Shown here one piece after another: positions 134-30,687 of a stretch of 32,000 nucleotides of DNA (within the stretch, counting starts at the first letter, position 1; each line of letters opens with the position of its first letter). Position numbers and translations under genes: made by a program. The stretch is from contig CP025011.1 in NCBI GenBank assembly GCA_002952755.1, forward strand, positions 1,140,001 to 1,172,000. The letters run 5' to 3'. Source of the DNA: Candidatus Saccharimonadota bacterium (GTDB lineage Bacteria > Patescibacteriota > Saccharimonadia > Saccharimonadales > UBA4665). The notes beneath the pieces are model-generated. The model saw nothing but the letters and a program-made list of their open reading frames with translations. It made no database searches and was not told the DNA's origin.

Positions 134-1561
134 ATGAAACCAGCCCGCACCCGATTTGCTCCCAGCCCTACTGGCTACCTCCACGTTGGCGGTGTCCGAA
201 CGGCTTTATTTGCCTGGCTTTTAGCAAAACAAAGCAAAGGGCAGTTTATCTTACGGCTGGAGGATACTGATAAAGCACGCGAAGTGCAAGGTTCCGAGCG
301 GCACATTATAGATAGCCTGCATTGGCTCGGCTTGCAGTGGGACGAAGGGGTGGATATTGGTGGTCCCTATGCGCCCTACAAACAAAGTGAACGCTTATCA
401 ATATACAAGGAGTGGGGTGAAAAATTAGTGGCCAAAGGAAGGGCATATGCCGACCCCTACACTCAAGCAGAAGTCGAAACCTTTAGGCAACAGGCTAAAG
501 ATAGCAAACAACCGTTCTTGTTCCGCAACCACCGTCCAGAAAACCCACCAATATGGGACGGCACCCAGCCTTTACGCTTCAAGTCCGACCCAAAAGCCTA
601 TACCTGGCATGACGCCGTCATGGGAGAATTATCTGCAGGAGAAGAGGCGATCGACGATTTTATCCTCATAAAATCAGATGGTTACCCCACTTATAACTTT
701 TGCCACATTATTGATGATCTACTCATGAACTGCACCCATGTCATTCGTTCGCAGGAGTTCGTATCGAGTATACCGCGTTTTCTTAATCTCTACGAAGCAC
801 TTGAAATAGAGCGACCCATATTAGCCACTCTGCCTGTAGTACTGGGGCCCGACGGCAAGAAAAAATTATCCAAACGCGACGGAGCTAAAGATATCTTGGA
901 CTACGCACGTGAAGGCTATCTGCCAGAAGCGATGATGAATTTTATGGCCACTTTGGGCTGGAATGATGGAACTGAGCAAGAAATCTTTAGCGCCCAAGAG
1001 CTGATTGATACATTCCAGCTTGATCGCGTACAGCGGGGCGGTGCTAAGTTTGACGAGCAGCGCCTACTATGGATGAATGGCATGCATATGAGGGCCTTAT
1101 CGATCGATGATGTGGCCACTCGCGCCCAGACCTTTTGGCCACCAGAAGCCGCCAGTTACACCGACGACTACAAAAAACGTATCCTCAGGCTCGTTCAGGA
1201 GCGGCTAAAGTATTTTGCCGAACTACCTGCGCTCACCAGCTTCTTCTTCCAGGATTTACCAATTAATCCGAGTTTATGGACCGAGAACAAACAACTTAAA
1301 AAACTGAACGCCGGTGAATTAAAAAACCTACTTAATCTAGCCCGTAACACGCTTGCCGAATGCGACTTTTCGGTTACTTGTCTCACTAACCACTTGAACG
1401 ATTTATTGGAAAAAACACAGCAAAAGCCAGCGGTTTTGTTCAGCCTCGTCCGTATTGCCACCACCCAGGCGCCAGCTAGCCCAGCGCTAGCGGAAACGCT
1501 TGCCGTTCTTGGCAGAGAAGTTGTCCTGCGTCGTATCGACGCCATGCTACCTACATTGTAG
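134..1561 (+). CDS. gltX: glutamate--tRNA ligase (GluRS)
   Basis: 475-aa ORF. It has a class I aaRS HIGH-type motif (RFAPSPTGYLHVGG), the 'RLEDTD' motif and a KMSKS-type 'KLSKRDG'. Confidence 0.95.
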   Translation: MKPARTRFAPSPTGYLHVGGVRTALFAWLLAKQSKGQFILRLEDTDKAREVQGSERHIIDSLHWLGLQWDEGVDIGGPYAPYKQSERLSIYKEWGEKLVAKGRAYADPYTQAEVETFRQQAKDSKQPFLFRNHRPENPPIWDGTQPLRFKSDPKAYTWHDAVMGELSAGEEAIDDFILIKSDGYPTYNFCHIIDDLLMNCTHVIRSQEFVSSIPRFLNLYEALEIERPILATLPVVLGPDGKKKLSKRDGAKDILDYAREGYLPEAMMNFMATLGWNDGTEQEIFSAQELIDTFQLDRVQRGGAKFDEQRLLWMNGMHMRALSIDDVATRAQTFWPPEAASYTDDYKKRILRLVQERLKYFAELPALTSFFFQDLPINPSLWTENKQLKKLNAGELKNLLNLARNTLAECDFSVTCLTNHLNDLLEKTQQKPAVLFSLVRIATTQAPASPALAETLAVLGREVVLRRIDAMLPTL

Positions 1562-1621: not shown

Positions 1622-1730
1622 TATCCTGATGGCAACCCCTCTTCAAGTAGAGCGTTTCGCGCAGGCCAGCTTACGCTGGTCTGGCTGCACTACGCTTGAC
1701 TCTACTTGAAGAGGGGTTGCCATCAGGATA
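1622..1730 (+). repeat. palindromic structured element, copy 1 (candidate ncRNA, + sense)
   Basis: 1622-1652 and 1700-1730 are perfect reverse complements (31 bp) around a 47-nt interior. The core 1647-1705 matches the reverse complement of 5000-5058. Confidence 0.6.
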
Positions 1731-1753
1731 TCAGTGTGTCTGAAAGCATAAGC

Positions 1754-1762
1754 TGATACAAT
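1754..1762 (+). promoter_or_regulatory. extended -10 (TGaTACAAT) for the DUF3048 gene
   Basis: TGATACAAT ends 7 nt before the ATG at 1770, with no SD sequence. Confidence 0.4.
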
Positions 1763-3026: not shown

Positions 3027-4568
3027 ATGGACCACTTGCAACGTTTTGTTTCCCAGTTCCGCAGCCGCGTCTTCGTAGTGTTGCTACTCGATAACGCTAT
3101 CATTTTCGGCGACTGGTGGGTAGTAGAACATGTCCTCAAATTGAACGATCTGGGCTTAGCGTTAAGCCTACTTGCCAGTTCGGTCATTGCCATTACCATT
3201 CTGCCTTGGGTAAGCGCCCGCTACCTAACGCAGCCGACGAGGCTTATCTGGCAGGCGATTCTACATATTGCGCCCGACACCACCAACGTTCCAGCGCCCG
3301 ACCTCAAGCGCCGGGGCATCGGCCACGACCTAGTGATAAATCTAGTAAGCCATGTCTATCAACTGGCTAGCGTGGTTGACTCAGTCGAAAAAACGGCCGC
3401 GATTGCCAACCGCGATTTACATAAAGATTTTGTGGCAAAAAATCTACCCCTGCCACTCATCGTGCTCGATAAAGATCAAAACATCGTCTTTGCCAACAAG
3501 GCGATGTGCGACTATTTACAGCGTACCGACGGAGAGACGTCTGGTCAGAATATCTATTCAGTGCTCGACTTATCATTCCCCTCAGAAGAAACGCTCGATA
3601 AATGGCTGCAAAACGCCACCCAAAATGCGGCGGTTACCACCAAAACCTGGGAACGGGTACGCCTCAATATTCAAGGGGGCACAACCACACGCCGGTTCGA
3701 CCTTGCGGCCTACTATAACCGCAGCAACCCCGAAGGCTTCGAGACCATGCTCGTGCTCTTTGACCACCCCAGTTACACCCAGGATGATCAGGCACTCAGC
3801 TTCGTAGCGCTCGCTGTCCACGAGTTACGCACCCCTATAACGCTCTTAAGAGGCTACATCGAGGCGCTCGAGGAAGACCTTGAAGGCAAACTTAACGAAG
3901 AAGACGCCACGTTCATGCATCGTATGAAAGCACAGGCGCAGTCGCTAACGGCTTTTATCAACAACATGCTCAACGTGGCGCGTATTGAGAGTGACCAACT
4001 CGTCCTCAAACTCCAAGAAGATACCTGGCAAGATATTGTCACTACTGCAGTCAACGATGTCTCGCTCAGAGCAAAGATCGTTGGCGTTGAATTATCGGCG
4101 GAAATCGCACCAAACTTGCCAAAGGTTGGCGTCGACCGCGTGGGTATTTACGAAGTACTGGTCAACCTCCTTGATAACGCTATTAAATACAGCGGCAAAG
4201 GCGCCGGCAAAAAAGTACTAGTACGCGCTGTCCTTAACAAGGAAGGAATGATCGAAACCACCGTACAGGACTCAGGCGCCGGTATCCCAACCAGCCTGCT
4301 GGCTAATTTATTCGAAAAATTTTACCGTTCGCACCGTTCGCGTAATCAGGTCGGCGGCACGGGGCTCGGACTCTACCTTAGCAAAACAATCGTCGATGCC
4401 CATGGCGGGCACATCTGGGTAAATAGCAAGGAAGGGGCAGGGAGCACTTTTGGCTTTACCGTGCTACCCTATGCGAAAGTTGCCGAAGAGAAAAGAAACG
4501 GCGATAATAACGGTATCAGCCGTGGCGCTCATGGCTGGATTAAAAATCATTCACTGTACAGCAGGTAA
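3027..4568 (+). CDS. sensor histidine kinase (PAS-like + HisKA + HATPase_c)
   Basis: H-box 'LAVHELRTPITLLRGYIEAL', N-box 'LVNLLDNAIKYS', and G-boxes 'DSGAGIP' and 'GGTGLGLYLSKTIV'. The N-terminus is hydrophobic. The gene starts 3 nt after the DUF3048 stop. Confidence 0.9.
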   Translation: MDHLQRFVSQFRSRVFVVLLLDNAIIFGDWWVVEHVLKLNDLGLALSLLASSVIAITILPWVSARYLTQPTRLIWQAILHIAPDTTNVPAPDLKRRGIGHDLVINLVSHVYQLASVVDSVEKTAAIANRDLHKDFVAKNLPLPLIVLDKDQNIVFANKAMCDYLQRTDGETSGQNIYSVLDLSFPSEETLDKWLQNATQNAAVTTKTWERVRLNIQGGTTTRRFDLAAYYNRSNPEGFETMLVLFDHPSYTQDDQALSFVALAVHELRTPITLLRGYIEALEEDLEGKLNEEDATFMHRMKAQAQSLTAFINNMLNVARIESDQLVLKLQEDTWQDIVTTAVNDVSLRAKIVGVELSAEIAPNLPKVGVDRVGIYEVLVNLLDNAIKYSGKGAGKKVLVRAVLNKEGMIETTVQDSGAGIPTSLLANLFEKFYRSHRSRNQVGGTGLGLYLSKTIVDAHGGHIWVNSKEGAGSTFGFTVLPYAKVAEEKRNGDNNGISRGAHGWIKNHSLYSR

Positions 4569-4575
4569 TTAATAT

Positions 4576-4965
4576 ATGGAACCCACGCAAAATCCCTCCA
4601 ACCGCCAGGTACTCGTCGTCGAAGACGAACATTTTATCAGCGAACTGTACGTTCGTGCCCTCACTCGAGCGGGCTACAGGGTCACTGTCGAAGTCGATGG
4701 GCAGCGGGGCCTGGAACTGGCCAAAACCGATCGGTTTGACATCATCCTGCTTGACCTTATGGTTCCTACTATCACCGGTATCGAAGTCCTACGCGCACTC
4801 CGTAGCCCGAATGCAAAGCCCTTAAAGGCAAAAATTGTCATCACTACCAACCTCGAACAGCGCGAAGAAATCAGAGCAGACATCGAGAAACAGGCCGACG
4901 CCTATCTTGTCAAAGCCGAGATTACCCCCCGCGAGTTAGTAGAATTCTTACATACAATCAAGTAG
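4576..4965 (+). CDS. single-domain response regulator (REC only)
   Basis: 129 aa with 'VLVVEDEHF', phospho-acceptor context 'IILLDLMVP' and 'YLVKAE'. There is no output domain. It starts 7 nt after the kinase stop. Confidence 0.9.
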   Translation: MEPTQNPSNRQVLVVEDEHFISELYVRALTRAGYRVTVEVDGQRGLELAKTDRFDIILLDLMVPTITGIEVLRALRSPNAKPLKAKIVITTNLEQREEIRADIEKQADAYLVKAEITPRELVEFLHTIK

Positions 4966-4975
4966 TTAATGCGCT

Positions 4976-5082
4976 AAGAGTAGCGGCGTCCTGTTTTCAG
5001 TAGAGTCAAGCGTAGTGCAACCAGACCGACTTTAGCCGGCCTGAGTGAAACGCTCTACTGAAAACAGTACGCCGCTACTCTT
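4976..5082 (-). repeat. palindromic structured element, copy 2 (candidate ncRNA, - sense)
   Basis: The 30-nt arms 4976-5005 and 5053-5082 pair at 29/30 positions (C4990/T5068 mismatch) around a 47-nt interior. The core is the reverse complement of copy 1's core (50/59 identical by hand count). Confidence 0.6.
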
Positions 5083-5139
5083 CTTGAACAGGAAGACTGT
5101 AATAAAAGAAGGAGAAAGAAGTTACAATAGGTCTTACTT

Positions 5140-5493
5140 ATGAATGAAGAGCAGCAACAAGATGGTGTAAGCATCCATAGCGGTTTTCCCAATCCTGCTA
5201 CCGACCGTCGTTTAACTGGGCTAGATCTTAATATGCTGCTCGTTACGCACAGTGCCAGTACCTATATGTTCCGGGTACGCGGCAATGAGTGGGAAGGTGT
5301 TGGCGTATTCGACGGTGATATTGCCATCGTCGACCGGGCGCTTGATCCACGCAAAAACGACGTTGTGCTGTGGTGGGACGAGACTCGTGGTGAGTTTATC
5401 ATTGCTCACTACCAGGATCTACCCGAGCACAGTAGCCTGTGGGGCGTAGTTAGCGCAACGATTCATGAATTCCGAAAGCGGGCTGTCCTATGA
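5140..5493 (+). CDS. UmuD-like S24-fold protein lacking the Ser/Lys catalytic dyad
   Basis: 117 aa. 'SGFPNPATD..LDLNMLLVTHSASTYMFRVRGNEW..FDGDIAIVD..GEFIIAHYQ' aligns to E. coli UmuD '[51 protein letters not shown]'. The stop overlaps the next start (ATGA). Confidence 0.75.
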   Translation: MNEEQQQDGVSIHSGFPNPATDRRLTGLDLNMLLVTHSASTYMFRVRGNEWEGVGVFDGDIAIVDRALDPRKNDVVLWWDETRGEFIIAHYQDLPEHSSLWGVVSATIHEFRKRAVL

Positions 5494-6791
5494 CTGCTCA
5501 GACTATTTTCGCGCTCATCGACTGCAATAACTTCTTTGTCAGTTGCGAGCGCTTGTTCCGTCCTGACCTGGAAAACAAACCAGTCGTGGTACTGAGCAGT
5601 AACGATGGCTGTATCGTTGCACGCAGCAACGAGGCGAAGGCGCTCGGCATACCAATGGGCGCGCCAGCGTTTCAGTGGCGTGAAACATTTAAACGGGAAC
5701 GCGTAACGACATTCTCAGCCAACTTCGAAATCTATGGCGACATCAGCAAACGGATCACGTCGCTACTCACCACCATCACGCCACGTATCGAAGTTTACTC
5801 AGTAGATGAATCATTCCTCGATCTCAGCCTACTGCACATTGACGATTATGCCGCCTGGGGTTCCATGGTAAGGGCTAGCATTCTCAAAAATATCGGCGTG
5901 CCCGTGTCAATCGGCATCGCACCCACTAAGACGTTAGCGAAACTGTCTAGCGAGCTTGCCAAACAGCATCAAGCCTTTGGCGGGGTAGTGGACTGGATAC
6001 AGGCTAGTGACGATTGGCGACGCGGTGCACTTAACAAAGTCCTCATTAAAGATGTCTGGGGAGTAGGTCGGCAGCTGGCCCCAAAACTCCGGGCCGAAGG
6101 CATAGGTACCGCGCTAGCCCTTAGCCAACTCCGGCCACAACATGCCCAGCAACTTATGGGTATTCATGGACGACAATTGGTTACCGAACTGAGCGGCACC
6201 AGCTGTTATCCGCTGGAACGCGAACACGCCGCAGCCAAAAGCATCCTACGCTCGCGTACCTTCGGTGAGGATGTAAGCCAGGCCCACGTACTAGAGTCGG
6301 CGATTGCCACCATGGGAACACAGGCGGCTTTTACGCTGAGGAGGCAAAAGCTCCTGGCCCGCCGGATCGGTTTCTTCGTTAATACCAACCGGCACAAACC
6401 AGGCTATCGCCGCTGGGTGCAGGAGATACAACTCAACCAGCCAACGAACGATACAGGACAGATTATCTCTATGCTCGCCCAAAAACTAAACGATATCTTC
6501 AGCAGCACCCAGTCTTATCATCGTCTTGGCGTATTTTTGTACGACCTCCTGTCAGAACAAGCGCTCCAAACCGACCTGCTGGGCCTGGTAAGTGCTCACG
6601 GGCACGATCGTGCAACACAGCGCATGCAGGCCGTAGATCACATCAACACCAAGCATGGGCGTGGCAAGATCTACTTCGCCGCCGAGGATCTTGGCAATAG
6701 TTGGCAGCCCAAACACCAAATCAGGTCGCCTCGATATTTGAGTAGCTGGGATGAGCTGCCAGAGGCGCACATTATGCCAAGGGCGAAGTAA
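5490..6791 (+). CDS. umuC: Y-family DNA polymerase, UmuC-like
   Basis: 433 aa. The N-terminus 'FALIDCNNFFVSCERLFRPDLENKPVVVLSSNDGCIVARSNEAKALGIPMG' and catalytic 'YSVDESFLD' closely resemble UmuC. Confidence 0.9.
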   Translation: MTAQTIFALIDCNNFFVSCERLFRPDLENKPVVVLSSNDGCIVARSNEAKALGIPMGAPAFQWRETFKRERVTTFSANFEIYGDISKRITSLLTTITPRIEVYSVDESFLDLSLLHIDDYAAWGSMVRASILKNIGVPVSIGIAPTKTLAKLSSELAKQHQAFGGVVDWIQASDDWRRGALNKVLIKDVWGVGRQLAPKLRAEGIGTALALSQLRPQHAQQLMGIHGRQLVTELSGTSCYPLEREHAAAKSILRSRTFGEDVSQAHVLESAIATMGTQAAFTLRRQKLLARRIGFFVNTNRHKPGYRRWVQEIQLNQPTNDTGQIISMLAQKLNDIFSSTQSYHRLGVFLYDLLSEQALQTDLLGLVSAHGHDRATQRMQAVDHINTKHGRGKIYFAAEDLGNSWQPKHQIRSPRYLSSWDELPEAHIMPRAK

Positions 6792-9162: not shown

Positions 9163-10673
9163 GATATATCGACGCACTCCTCAATAGGATCACCATGTAC
9201 CGCCTTATACTGTACTATCTGCTTTTCCTCGTAGGTGCAGCTGTTATCTTGTCGCTGTTTGGTCGTATTAGCTACAGCGCACCCGATATTATAGGTTCGT
9301 CGCTCTTTCTTGTTGCTATATGTTGGATCACCAACAAGATCTTCGCCCGAGTCTTTCATGCGCCTACCAACGTCGAATCGGTCTATATAACCGCCCTTAT
9401 CTTAGCACTCATCATTACACCGTCGCACACAGTGGAAGGCGGCACCTTCCTGGCGGCAGCCGGTGGGCTCGCGATGGCCTCCAAGTATATGCTGGCCATC
9501 AATAAGCGCCATGTGTGGAATCCTGCCGCAATAGCCGTGATGCTTACCAGTCTGGGAGCAGGCGAGAGTGCCAGCTGGTGGGTAGGGAGTCTAACGATGC
9601 TACCAGTTGTAGTACTGGGCGGCCTGCTAGTAGTCCGCAAAATTCGCCGGGGAAAAATGGTGGCCGTTTTCCTCACTATGGCATTGCTGGCCACCACCCT
9701 GTATAGCCTGCTCGGCAACGGCGCCGTTTCTTCGGTACTGCACAAAGAAATAACGAGTTCGGCGCTCTTCTTCCTAGCATTCGTCATGCTTACAGAGCCA
9801 CTCACCGCACCAACTACGCCTGGCAAGCAAATAGGGTACGCCATTTTGGTCGCGCTGCTTTTTCCGCCGCAGGTACATTTTGACAATTGGTATGGCACGC
9901 CCGAAATAGCACTGGTAGTAGGGAATATCTTTAGTTATCTTTTAGGGTCACGCGCAAAGATACTCCTCAGGCTCCGAAGTCGCACTATTTTGTCGCCAGA
10001 TATAGCCGACTTTACTTTTATCCCCGAAAAAAGTCTTACCTACCAACCCGGGCAGTACATGGAGTGTACCTTGCAGCACCCGCACACCGACTCCCGCGGT
10101 GCGCGGCGTTACTTTACACTCGCTTCATCACCGACCGAGCCAGAAATCCGGATCGGCATAAAAATGTATCAAAAGAGCAGCAGCTACAAACATGCCTTGC
10201 TCGGAATGGACAGCAATACACCATTTGTGGCTGCACAGGTTAGCGGCGATTTTACGCTTCCGAAAGACGCCCGTCAAAAAATAGCATTCATTGCCGGCGG
10301 CATCGGCATCACCCCGTATCGTAGTATGCTCAAATACCTTCTGGACAGGAACGAACCGCGGCCGATCATCATGCTCTACACGGCTACGAAGGCGGCCGAT
10401 CTCGTGTATACCGATGTTATTGAGGACGCTCGCCAGCGCCTCAAGGTCCCGACGTTCTATATAGTGAGCGAATCATCACCCCAGACTAGCAACTCTTCTG
10501 TACAAACTGGCCATATAACCTCGGAGCTTATACAACAAACGATCCCCGACTATGCCGAACGGCTCTTTTACCTCTGTGGCCCGCCTAGCATGATTCACAC
10601 AACGGAGGCCATACTGAGAAAGTTAGAAATTTCGCACCGGCACATCAAAAAAGACTTTTTCTCTGGCTACTGA
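9159..10673 (+). CDS. fusion of RnfD/NqrB-like polytopic membrane domain and FNR-like FAD/NAD(P)H oxidoreductase domain
   Basis: 504 aa. The N-terminal half is multi-TM with RnfD/NqrB-like 'VWNPAAIAVML' and 'FVMLTEPLTAPTTPGKQIGYA'. The C-terminal half has 'RRYFTLASSP' (RxY[ST]), 'AGGIGITP' and 'YLCGPPSM'. Confidence 0.75.
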   Translation: MRYIDALLNRITMYRLILYYLLFLVGAAVILSLFGRISYSAPDIIGSSLFLVAICWITNKIFARVFHAPTNVESVYITALILALIITPSHTVEGGTFLAAAGGLAMASKYMLAINKRHVWNPAAIAVMLTSLGAGESASWWVGSLTMLPVVVLGGLLVVRKIRRGKMVAVFLTMALLATTLYSLLGNGAVSSVLHKEITSSALFFLAFVMLTEPLTAPTTPGKQIGYAILVALLFPPQVHFDNWYGTPEIALVVGNIFSYLLGSRAKILLRLRSRTILSPDIADFTFIPEKSLTYQPGQYMECTLQHPHTDSRGARRYFTLASSPTEPEIRIGIKMYQKSSSYKHALLGMDSNTPFVAAQVSGDFTLPKDARQKIAFIAGGIGITPYRSMLKYLLDRNEPRPIIMLYTATKAADLVYTDVIEDARQRLKVPTFYIVSESSPQTSNSSVQTGHITSELIQQTIPDYAERLFYLCGPPSMIHTTEAILRKLEISHRHIKKDFFSGY

Positions 10674-11400: not shown

Positions 11401-12009
11401 ATGGTTACTGACACCGAAGCAATTGACGCAAAAAAACAATCACAAGACTACCCTAAATTGGTTCTCATTAGAGGTTTGCCAGGCAGCGGGAAATCCTACC
11501 TAGCAAATGCGATGAAGGACTCACTGGGTCCAGACAAGGTGGTGACGCTCGACCCGGATGCGACAGATTACAAAAGCCAGGAGTATGTTGATTTTTCCAA
11601 AGCGCTCGCCGCAGACGGCGTTGAGGAAAAATTCTATCCATATCGCTTCGTGCGCGCCCAAGCATACGAAGGAATTGTCAAACACAAGATCATTATCTGG
11701 AACCAGGCCTTTACTAACCTAGATGGATTTCAAAAAACAATCGCTAACCTACAGGCCTATGCCGCAGATCGTGGCACCCAGCTTCCGCTGCTCGTGGTAG
11801 AAGTTGCCGTCAACGAAAAAACCGCAAAGGCACGCGTTGCCGATCGGGCAAAGCAAGGCGGCCATAATGTTCCAGAAGAGGCTTTTGCGCGGTTCATCAA
11901 CGATTACGCAAGCTTTGCGGACCAAGGCTACAATATCGTTGGCGTGAACGGTGAGGATGACATCGCTAGCTCGGTAGCCGCTGTCACAAAAGCATTACAA
12001 AAACTATAA
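11401..12009 (+). CDS. P-loop NTPase/kinase (AAA_33 / zeta-toxin-like fold)
   Basis: 202 aa with Walker A 'IRGLPGSGKSYLA'. No other diagnostic motif was recognised. Confidence 0.65.
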   Translation: MVTDTEAIDAKKQSQDYPKLVLIRGLPGSGKSYLANAMKDSLGPDKVVTLDPDATDYKSQEYVDFSKALAADGVEEKFYPYRFVRAQAYEGIVKHKIIIWNQAFTNLDGFQKTIANLQAYAADRGTQLPLLVVEVAVNEKTAKARVADRAKQGGHNVPEEAFARFINDYASFADQGYNIVGVNGEDDIASSVAAVTKALQKL

Positions 12010-14784: not shown

Positions 14785-15438
14785 ATGAGTTCTTTATCGC
14801 GTAACACCCCTCCCGGAATATGCGATCACTATGATAATTTTGCAGATTTTAGCAAAGAATGGCTCGAAAGAGACGTCGTCCCTTGGTCCGTGGCGATGCA
14901 TTACCAGATTCATCCAAGTCAGCACTTCGGCGACAAGAGCTCCGTCGAAAAATTTTACAAGGATTTTGTAAGTAAAGGGAACCGGCGTATTGGCCACTTT
15001 CTGATGTTCTCACAGCGTGAGAACGATTCAGAGCAAAGACGACAAGTCGATGCCTTTAAAGTAGCGCGAGGAGTTGGCGAAACAGTATTCACGGCCACAC
15101 TAACTCACACTATACTTGGTAGTCTGCAACAACACGCTGGAACAAATAATCCATACCTCAATGACTGGCTCTACGATAGTGCGTTAGGACTTCCGGGGTC
15201 GTTTTTGAGCATACATCACAACTACGCCAATTACCCACACGACACTCCCGATACTGTTGTTTTCATGAGCTATAAGCGCCAGCCAACCTCTGATTCTACT
15301 GATTCAGAAGTTACACTTGATGGCTGCGATGTCTACACACCGCCTTTCCCCCCAGGTCTACACCAATATGTGAGCGCCTGGGAAAGGATATTAAGTCACA
15401 CTATCCAGCTTTCCGCCGCAGCAAATTCTACCACCTAA
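14785..15438 (+). CDS. hypothetical soluble protein
   Basis: 217-aa ORF. TATAGT at 14773-14778 lies 6 nt before the ATG. No family was recognised. Confidence 0.6.
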   Translation: MSSLSRNTPPGICDHYDNFADFSKEWLERDVVPWSVAMHYQIHPSQHFGDKSSVEKFYKDFVSKGNRRIGHFLMFSQRENDSEQRRQVDAFKVARGVGETVFTATLTHTILGSLQQHAGTNNPYLNDWLYDSALGLPGSFLSIHHNYANYPHDTPDTVVFMSYKRQPTSDSTDSEVTLDGCDVYTPPFPPGLHQYVSAWERILSHTIQLSAAANSTT

Positions 15439-15525
15439 GCTGCGAAAGCGTCACCTTTAACGCCCTTTACGAGTTAATTAGTGGCCTGTCAGTGTCAAGG
15501 GCTCAAGACAAGAAGCCCTAGATTA

Positions 15526-27213: not shown

Positions 27214-27290
27214 TGGTGACCCCTGCGGGAGTCGAACCCGCGATCTTCAGGATGAGAACCTGACGTCCTGGACCACTAGACGAAGGGGCC
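27214..27290 (-). tRNA. tRNA-Glu: tRNA-Glu (anticodon CUC), CCA encoded
   Basis: The reverse complement folds by hand as a 77-nt cloverleaf. Acceptor GGCCCCT/AGGGGTC, D arm GTCT-AGTGGTCCA-GGAC, anticodon arm TCAGG-TTCTCAT-CCTGA, T arm GCGGG-TTCGACT-CCCGC, then A-CCA. Confidence 0.9.
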
Positions 27291-29235: not shown

Positions 29236-30687
29236 ATGGCAAAAATTCTACTGGTGGAAGATGATAACAATTTGCGCGAGATCTATGAGGCGCGCTTGCA
29301 GGCCGAGGGCTACGAAATTGTCTCTGCCCAAGACGGCGAAGCGGCACTCGCTGTTGCCAAAAAAGAGCAGCCGGATCTGGTAATTTCCGACGTTATGATG
29401 CCCCGCATTAGCGGTTTCGAAATGCTCGACATCCTACGTAATACCGAAGGCCTCAAGGATGTGAAGGTAATTATGCTCACAGCCCTCGGCCAGGCTGAAG
29501 ACAAAACGCGAGCCGACGCTCTTGGGGCGGATCGTTACCTAGTGAAGTCGCAAGTGACTCTGGAAGACATCGTCAAAACCGCAGCCGACCTTTTAGCAGG
29601 TAGCGCGGCCGCAGCAGTTAATACGGCAGCTCCAGCTACACCCGCCGCTGCCGCAGCGCCGACTACCGTACCGCAAGTCGCAGTCACGCCCATGCCCGTT
29701 GCATCGGAGCCAACCCAGGCAGCACCCGCCGCTCCGACCGGGCCCGCTACAGCAGCGCCGCAGACGCCAGTAGCTACACCCACCGCAACACCGCAATCAG
29801 CCCCTGCTCCAGTTCCGGTCGTAACGCCTCCAGCAGTAACCCAGACGCCAGTAACTACTGCTCCCGCAGCGCCGCCAGCTGCTCCTGCCAGCACCCCAGC
29901 TCCCCAGCCAGCCGCCGCTGCCGCAGCGCCGCAGACTACTGCAAACGAACAAGCTGCCTTACAGGCACAAATTGAAGCCTTTACCAACAACAATACTCCA
30001 ACAGAAGCCACACCAACCCCTCCTGCAGCCTCGCCGCAACCACCAACGAGCAACAATGAAAGCAATCTTGCTGATGCCGTACAAGATCTTATTTCGAGCA
30101 CCATACCAGCTGCTCCCATGCCTGCCGCTCCTCCCCCAGTAGCTGCACCAGCTGCTCCTGCCATGTCTATACCGGCGACGCCTACTGTTCCTCCAACTAC
30201 AGCGATATCTCCACAACCGCCCGCAACCACGACTCCCGCAGTACCTGCGCCAAATCCTGCATTGACACCGGCTCCAGCTACTCCGGTAACTGCCGTACAA
30301 GCAACTCCCGCAGCGCCACAACCAACTCAGCAGGCAGCGCCAGCCGTTTCCACACCCCCACCAGTAGTTTCGCCAGTCACCGCAGCACCCCCAGTCCAAC
30401 CACCCGTAGAAACGCCATTGTCTTCAGCCGCCAGCGCTCCAGCTACAACCCCAAACGACGACAGCATCGCGATGTCTAAAAAGAAGATTATCTCACCAAT
30501 AACCGATGGAAATGCGGCAGCGCCGACCGATCTGAGCAGCCTATTGGCCAAAGAAGGCATTAGCAATATCGACGATCCCGCACCAGCCGGCACCGTAACC
30601 ACACCACATCCCCCTGGCCACGTCATCTCTCCTAACCCGGTAAATGCGAACGGTCAGCCAGTAGACCCCAATAGTATCGCTCTCTAG
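29236..30687 (+). CDS. response regulator: REC domain fused to a ~360-aa Pro/Ala/Thr-rich low-complexity tail
   Basis: The REC domain has 'ILLVEDDNN', 'LVISDVMMP', 'MLTALG' and 'YLVKS'. From about aa 122 onward there is no recognisable output domain, only P/A/T-rich sequence and a short non-repetitive C-terminus. Confidence 0.85.
   Translation: MAKILLVEDDNNLREIYEARLQAEGYEIVSAQDGEAALAVAKKEQPDLVISDVMMPRISGFEMLDILRNTEGLKDVKVIMLTALGQAEDKTRADALGADRYLVKSQVTLEDIVKTAADLLAGSAAAAVNTAAPATPAAAAAPTTVPQVAVTPMPVASEPTQAAPAAPTGPATAAPQTPVATPTATPQSAPAPVPVVTPPAVTQTPVTTAPAAPPAAPASTPAPQPAAAAAAPQTTANEQAALQAQIEAFTNNNTPTEATPTPPAASPQPPTSNNESNLADAVQDLISSTIPAAPMPAAPPPVAAPAAPAMSIPATPTVPPTTAISPQPPATTTPAVPAPNPALTPAPATPVTAVQATPAAPQPTQQAAPAVSTPPPVVSPVTAAPPVQPPVETPLSSAASAPATTPNDDSIAMSKKKIISPITDGNAAAPTDLSSLLAKEGISNIDDPAPAGTVTTPHPPGHVISPNPVNANGQPVDPNSIAL

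Follow-up and report, generated by a model that had tools for sequence, protein, structure and literature searches.

The DNA analysed here, a stretch of 32,000 nt to which we refer as the window, comes from a Saccharimonadales (CPR) bacterium; the best relatives of its GltX protein are at most 78% identical and all belong to Candidatus Saccharimonadales/Saccharibacteria MAGs. Two of its intergenic regions, one between gltX and a DUF3048 gene and one between a response-regulator gene and a umuD-like gene, each contain a long inverted repeat around a related centre. We refer to these repeats as copy 1 (c1) and copy 2 (c2). The genes, repeat segments and promoter elements of the two regions are the following.

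134-1561, plus strand: gltX, glutamyl-tRNA synthetase (ORF; Pfam tRNA-synt_1c)
1622-1652, plus strand: left arm of c1, 31 nt, complementary at 31/31 positions to 1700-1730
1653-1699, plus strand: conserved centre of c1, 47 nt, identical to copy 2 at 51/59 positions when GTAGAG/CTCTAC are included
1662-1683, plus strand: inner hairpin of c1, CAGGCCAGC-TTAC-GCTGGTCTG, 9 bp including G1665·T1680
1700-1730, plus strand: right arm of c1, 31 nt
1735-1743, plus strand: 9-mer TGTGTCTGA, separated by 4 nt from the c1 right arm
1754-1762, plus strand: extended -10 box of the DUF3048 gene, TGATACAAT, read from the sequence; the DUF3048 ATG is at 1770
4576-4965, plus strand: response-regulator gene (ORF), whose stop lies 10 nt 5′ of c2
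4976-5005, plus strand: left arm of c2, 30 nt, complementary at 29/30 positions to 5053-5082
5006-5052, minus strand: conserved centre of c2, 47 nt, scoring 97.9 bits with covariance model R2 on the minus strand
5053-5082, plus strand: right arm of c2, 30 nt
5123-5128, plus strand: TACAAT -10 box, 3′ of c2 and 5′ of the umuD-like gene (ATG at 5140)

The gltX stop codon (1561) is separated from c1 by 60 nt, and the extended -10 box TGATACAAT lies 23 nt downstream of c1. The location of this box just 7 nt before the ATG suggests a leaderless DUF3048 mRNA. The promoter block 5′ of the DUF3048 gene, AAGCATAAGCTGnTACAAT (window positions 1744-1762), is conserved across Saccharimonadales (L007, L091, L066 and L071) and is present in relatives with and without a hairpin. 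On the 3′ side of c2, the umuD/umuC-like pair matches Pfam Peptidase_S24 and IMS. The initial annotation had placed both copies between plus-strand transcription units, which we confirmed, each copy being located just 5′ of a TACAAT promoter. A consensus scan listed no promoter-like site within c1 or c2, and the internal TTGACT of the element has no -10 partner. No T-run or U-tract follows c1 or c2, and the terminator scan reports neither element, in agreement with the earlier view that this is not a simple terminator. Classical hairpins are scarce in the window, where two were found.

Elsewhere in the window, a 483-aa ORF with no recorded Pfam domain (29236-30687) has a segment, from 29627 to 30328, with imperfect direct repeats that are GC-rich and 24-61 nt long. 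Another ORF, at 11401-12009, encodes a zeta-toxin-like/AAA_33 kinase and has a homologue in the corresponding region of the relative L085.

The arms of c1 pair at 31/31 positions around a 47-nt interior, exactly as first described. The layout of c2 was also described correctly, with 30-nt arms and a 47-nt interior, but its arms are not perfect, since C4990·T5068 is a mismatch, the only one. The inner part of the c1 left arm, CTTCAAGTAGAG, recurs in other copies, and its outer ~14 nt are private to c1. The core sense strand of c1 is the plus strand, in the same direction as gltX, whereas that of c2 is the minus strand, antisense to both of its flanking genes. When positions 1647-1705 (+) are aligned with 5000-5058 (-), the two copies show the reported inverted and gapless match, with 51/59 identical positions rather than the 50/59 counted by hand. 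Core sub-patterns occur at two places only in the window (c1 and c2), and 0/100 shuffled sequences gave two matches; c1 scores 98.8 bits with covariance model R2. The conserved 47-nt centre is asymmetric and has its own 9-11-bp hairpin. In c1, this inner hairpin is lengthened by C1660:G1684 and G1659:C1685, beyond a bulged G1661; in c2, positions 5035-5043 pair with 5022-5030 around a loop at 5031-5034. The length of the whole unit is nearly constant, at 109, 107 and ~111 bp in the copies for which it can be given.

Both copies fold far better than their shuffled versions, whether treated as RNA (z = -13.9 for c1 and -12.0 for c2) or as DNA (z = -14.2 and -10.8, respectively). Comparison of c1 with c2 revealed three compensatory changes in the centre (A:U to G:C, G:C to A:U, and G:C to G:U). 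Each of the eight core differences either keeps the pairing or falls in an unpaired position, which indicates that some constraint or correction acts on the inner hairpin as well. The base changes that the initial annotation took as covariation of the 9-bp helix and its 2-bp extension are thus present, but two sequences carry no statistical power, the observed score having been reached by 119/500 shuffles.

These features raise the possibility of a strand-specific structured non-coding RNA, in which the apical module would be functional and the variable stem would serve as a processing or stability helix (for instance an RNase III site) that compensatory evolution keeps paired. In the inner helix, two pairs changed by double substitution and one changed from G:C to G:U with no pair broken, and structure-neutral core differences fit selection on RNA structure equally well as they fit a mobile DNA. 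Additionally, the G1665·T1680 pair (G·U in RNA) is conserved in both copies and pairs solely in the core-sense strand, and this strand folds better as RNA in both of them (-80.1 vs -78.2 kcal/mol in c1 and -67.4 vs -59.5 kcal/mol in c2). Nevertheless, as single-stranded DNA the two strands fold about equally, and a strand-specific ssDNA intermediate is equally compatible with the conserved G1665·T1680. G:U pairs normally build up in long RNA helices that are under selection, while near-perfect Watson-Crick symmetry is expected from recent inverted copying or from DNA palindrome correction. When the arm pairs of 10 elements, including those of relatives described below, were pooled, 267/270 pairs were Watson-Crick, the three exceptions being G·T, A·C and C·T (one each). 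Arms so purely Watson-Crick argue for a DNA-level process rather than a selected RNA helix. Further points against an RNA are that the c2 core is antisense to two co-directional neighbours with no promoter-like site inside it in the consensus scan, that Rfam and the relatives examined yielded neither a family nor a homologue, and that the element is multi-copy, with relatives lacking it at the same sites. The proposal of the initial annotation, an RNA with defined polarity, does not survive these observations well, and we consider a non-coding RNA very improbable.

Copies beyond the window were read from Logan (k=31) short-read contigs of the same genome, which were available from five sequencing samples. 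Two were found.

Copy cD, about 0.8 kb past the end of the window, directly after the der stop codon: reads TTCAAGTAGAGCGTTACACGCAGGCCGACTAA, at a contig end
Copy cA, about 2.8 kb before the start of the window, between the convergent sortase and PEGA genes: arms on two contig ends

The contig that ends at cD finishes in ...TATTAGgcccagcaacttcctcaTTCAAGTAGAGCGTTACACGCAGGCCGACTAA. cD scores 28.7 bits with covariance model R2 (E = 3e-6), and its core sense strand runs with the flanking genes, as in c1; among co-directional transcription units, the core orientation of c1 and cD is therefore opposite to that of c2. For cA, the first contig ends in ...TAG-tcagacaca-CCAATACCGCCTCCGCCTCTGTTTTAGTAG and the next one starts with CTACTAAAACAGAGGCGGAGGCGGTATTGG-aa-TTA; its arms are complementary at 30/30 positions, or over ~32 bp counting the unseen AG/CT. 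The family data thus consist of two complete copies (c1 and c2) and two partial ones (cA and cD), and the copy number is at least four in the ~44.5 kb readable, all extragenic (~1 per 11 kb). What had been annotated as a two-copy element has at least two more copies just outside the window.

All Logan k=31 contigs examined from this genome, in five samples, break at one of these hairpins. Contig L001 begins at 1701 and contig L003 finishes at 1651, both at the arms of c1, which indicates that the perfect arms interrupt assembly at k=31. Contigs also break inside the cores of c2 and cD, and this breakage of the k=31 graph suggests that there may be more copies sharing 30-mers with the c2 and cD cores. 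No empty-site allele was seen across the five samples, all of which carry c1 and c2. In two samples, contigs also break at ~15443-15467, in the intergenic region that follows the ORF at 14785-15438. This region has no hairpin element, and the break could stem from strain heterogeneity or from a different short repeat.

Comparison of the arms revealed a gradient of conservation, for which the basis is four arms. Read toward the core, the arms of 4/4 copies finish in A followed by GTAG(AG). The 10-12 nt adjoining GTAGAG are pyrimidine-rich and alike in pairs of copies, with CCTC(A)TTCAA common to c1 and cD and CTGTTTT(C)A common to c2 and cA. The outer 12-15 nt differ in 4/4 copies, and only the inner ~18 bp are related. 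The inner inverted repeat has a pyrimidine-rich segment and then A(A)GTAGAG, with CTCTAC(T)T as the mirror image. The outer ~25 bp of the arms had been reported to show no obvious similarity between copies, which holds for the outer 12-15 bp but not for the inner 10-12 nt. Outside the arms, the reverse complement of the 9-mer TGTGTCTGA, TCAGACACA, directly adjoins the left arm of cA (L092, 8698-8706), and these are the only two occurrences of TGTGTCTGA/TCAGACACA in ~44 kb of this genome. The 9-mer could represent a tail conserved in the element, or else a motif of its target. No direct repeat of the kind left by target-site duplication was found in the flanks of c1, c2 and cA.

All four copies are located ~2 to 85 nt from a stop codon, ahead of the next promoter or of a convergent stop. 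At the same sites, the gaps of related genomes are short. The convergent gap between the sortase and PEGA genes measures ~122 nt here, of which just 11 nt lie outside the hairpin, while in ~40/57 related loci it measures less than 30 nt, down to overlapping stops. The gap between the response-regulator and umuD-like genes measures 174 nt here and, in the nearest two relatives, 36 nt, or 148 nt without a hairpin. The gap between gltX and the DUF3048 gene measures 208 nt here, and most relatives have no long hairpin in it; in L066, only 39 nt, containing the promoter block, separate gltX from the start of the DUF3048 match. The 1.18-Mb JGI relative L091 has no such hairpin in the 18 kb examined. 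Short gaps without hairpins at the same sites in relatives indicate that the hairpins are insertions.

The location of the element could also reflect a role for the host, namely that of a U-tract-independent terminator or insulator hairpin that evolves in place, its core having spread by duplication or gene conversion with no transposition. Such a role would fit the position of the four copies relative to stop codons, promoters and convergent stops, as well as the rarity of classical hairpins in the window (two). The gltX-DUF3048 gap holds unrelated long hairpins in four genomes, the hairpins of three relatives sharing the gap of c1, and this could reflect a need of the host for a hairpin there. 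Moreover, the cores of L006 and L076 have a classical A-tract/T-tract terminator hairpin at the apex. However, most relatives are hairpin-free at these sites and have far shorter gaps, the U-tract is absent, and a perfect stem of 30 bp far exceeds what termination needs. One 59-nt core at four unlinked sites with different arms would still require a copying mechanism. We consider hairpins evolving in place quite unlikely.

A hairpin scan of the relatives identified elements with near-perfect arms of 20-28 bp and interiors of 28-92 nt. Such long-arm hairpins occur in L006 (two copies), L007, L009, L076, L061 and L072/L073; those of L006, L007, L009 and L076 have the same architecture as c1 and c2 and an unrelated sequence. 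L006 has its own two-copy family (1143-1274 and 11501-11627), whose 88-nt core is 89% identical between copies. The arms of the two L006 copies differ from each other and are paired at 26/26 and 27/28 positions, respectively. The L006 core holds a bidirectional terminator-like hairpin, and its 5-6-nt loop is inverted between the copies (CATCT vs AGATG). This loop inversion shows that, in these genomes, a sequence enclosed by perfect arms does flip, which would also account for the opposite core orientations of c1/cD and c2.

The nearly identical genomes L072 and L073 share a hairpin at 6012-6089, with 25-bp arms and a 28-nt loop, whose left arm contains the stop codon of the upstream gene. The two genomes differ at 3/28 positions of the loop, all transitions, at 0/50 positions of the arms and at 2/323 positions of the flanks; hypermutability of the loop or an artefact of assembly may explain this. 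Other structured sequences were also noted among the relatives. L023 contains three copies of an intergenic repeat of ~170-200 nt (3307-3468, 5385-5583 and 9744-9964). Their interior, GATTGGCGAGGACTRCCTGAACCCA..., is conserved, and the long stems around it vary between copies in a complementary manner. The repeat has no Rfam match; it may represent a structured leader unrelated to the element, or a further repeat family. In L039, a tRNA gene with a long variable arm (5161-5275), conserved across most loci and probably a tRNA-Leu, is flanked by a 22/23-bp inverted repeat that prolongs the acceptor stem through the encoded CCA into the leader and trailer.

The hairpin scan further showed that Saccharimonadales genomes have many perfect bidirectional terminator hairpins of 16-20 bp. 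Mobility could also be limited to the core, either with a ~83-nt unit entering the loop of an existing hairpin or with a palindrome extending outward by template switching, the outer arms being local in both cases. The abundance of terminator hairpins, the private outer 12-15 bp next to a shared inner arm and core, and the upstream stop codon within the left arm of L072/L073 are in line with this idea, and the one-step creation of perfect hairpins by template switching is reported in a preprint (bioRxiv 10.1101/2023.04.19.537475). Against it, three orthologous sites are hairpin-free in (most) relatives, and the window holds just two empty hairpins; on these two grounds, insertion into pre-existing terminator loops is disfavoured. 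A constant length of 107-111 bp would be unexpected from random extension, and the 9-mer outside the arms of two copies suggests that the variable arms are internal to the unit. Mobility of the core alone is, in our judgement, unlikely.

Searches for a known family gave no assignment. At the gathering threshold, the sole Rfam match in the window was the tRNA gene at 27217-27290 (-). A permissive Rfam scan at c1 returned only sub-threshold miRNA-precursor families, which match any long hairpin, and the analogous hairpins of relatives gave no Rfam match. These results are consistent with the earlier statement that the family was not recognised. A covariance model, which the initial annotation had suggested building from the copies, does find c1, c2 and cD, yet nothing in 1.25 Mb of relatives, where blastn-short with the core also gave no match. 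The exact core 20-mer had 0 matches in the genome, viral and metagenome collections scanned. The L076 and L006 cores had 0 matches in viral contigs, and the L076 core likewise had 0 in metagenome contigs. A degenerate pattern of the 5′ core had one match, which we attribute to chance, as it fell in GC-rich, coding-like viral sequence without a hairpin. The idea that the arms act as guides or spacers against phages was discarded, both variable arms having 0 matches in viral contigs. The ORFs scanned in the window had no transposase Pfam match, and neither a transposase nor a RAYT or any further candidate for mobilisation was seen there. No description of repeat or mobile-DNA families in CPR/Saccharibacteria was found in the literature searched.

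The element resembles several known systems in part. In MITEs, the terminal inverted repeats are conserved and the target site is duplicated in direct orientation. The Correia/NEMIS elements and other bacterial MITEs are non-autonomous palindromic intergenic repeats of ~100-150 bp that are co-transcribed with neighbouring genes, and Correia hairpins in mRNA are RNase III substrates that influence transcript stability. Like them, the element is a palindromic intergenic repeat on the ~100-bp scale; unlike a MITE, its outer 12-15 bp are not conserved in 4/4 copies, and c1, c2 and cA have no direct duplication. Quasipalindrome correction, template switching and hairpin-loop inversion (flip-flop) make or keep perfect inverted repeats and invert the sequence between the arms. 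The near absence of mismatches, the flipped loop of L006 and the opposite core orientations recall these processes. However, they are mutational processes and not a family, and they leave a 59-nt core at at least four unlinked sites, and its constant length, unexplained. With intrinsic terminators, the element shares a strong hairpin and the position at gene ends; it differs from them by the missing U-tract, a stem three times longer and a 47-nt interior in place of the 3-12-nt loops of classical hairpins in relatives. Integron attC sites have conserved R/L boxes at their outer ends and a uniform orientation, in a cassette array beside intI, whereas here the outer ends are unconserved, the orientation is mixed and the neighbours are housekeeping genes (gltX and der).

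The closest parallels are with REP and REPIN sequences. Most of those lie 3′ of a coding region, where the adjacent genes are co-directional or convergent (PMC3733652), and complementary changes preserve their hairpins (PMC3116915, PMC3733652). Like them, the element is short, extragenic and multi-copy, belongs to species-specific families, forms a long hairpin as ssDNA or RNA, shows complementary changes and has GTAG at the stem foot. In REPINs, the ends (the REP 16-mers) are highly conserved and the spacer is less conserved, with compensating changes (PMC3116915); here, the centre is conserved (51/59) and the outer arms are unrelated, an inverse layout. The initial annotation had already noted that a conserved centre within variable paired arms reverses the REP arrangement, and the published REPIN structure bears this out (PMC3116915). 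REPs have stems of 6-13 bp and a GTAG (or CGTC) tag that is terminal and unpaired (PMC3733652), unlike the GTAGAG described here, which in all copies is internal, paired with CTCTAC and enclosed within arms of 30-32 bp. For these reasons, the element is not filed as a REPIN. The best reading is that of a DNA-level palindromic repeat, to be classed among the palindromic intergenic repeats.

On balance, and with moderate confidence, we regard c1 and c2 as copies of a nested-palindrome DNA repeat, 107-111 bp long, multi-copy and genome-specific, which is likely a selfish, non-autonomous mobile DNA. Such a repeat would have settled where a compact genome has room for it, in the few permissive gaps that separate a stop codon from the next promoter or convergent stop. 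Fold-back synthesis or template switching, at transposition or at replication, could use one arm as the template for the other; the preprint cited above reports that template switching can make a perfect hairpin in one step (bioRxiv 10.1101/2023.04.19.537475). Regeneration of the arms at the DNA level would make them both perfect and copy-specific. The outer arms may be carried by the element or, alternatively, may derive from the target flank. A transcript reading through into the element would finish in a perfect 30-bp dsRNA hairpin, and this hairpin could cause stalling or termination, insulate the following unit or undergo cleavage by RNase III. Any such effect on transcripts would be a side effect or a co-option and not the element's reason to exist; RNase III processing or insulation would be a plausible secondary consequence of the hairpin.

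The combination of a conserved centre and variable ends contradicts the way in which known transposases recognise their elements, which is a counterpoint to a mobile repeat. An arrangement that would accommodate it is an inside-out REPIN, in which the machinery reads the conserved asymmetric centre. Each round of copying would provide new arms, made from donor or target-flank sequence by fold-back, hairpin-primed or template-switched synthesis, and the centre may flip. This version of the mobile repeat is tentative and, as we see it, rather doubtful. If true, it would represent an undescribed class of hairpin mobile elements in some Saccharimonadales (CPR) bacteria, with a mode of propagation that gives inverted and not direct duplications of the flanks.

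A conserved centre, private perfect arms and a constant length are together the opposite of what is predicted for ends recognised by a transposase. If the arms are rebuilt by fold-back copying, they would point to a propagation mechanism undescribed in bacteria. The element also has practical consequences. It breaks short-read assemblies, perfect 30-bp hairpins being expected assembly break-points, and its arm sequences could act as natural, site-specific strain markers. For the organism itself, a repeat present at ~1 per 11 kb, as in the ~44 kb read, that lies after a stop codon and ahead of the promoter that follows would affect where transcripts end throughout a small, packed genome.
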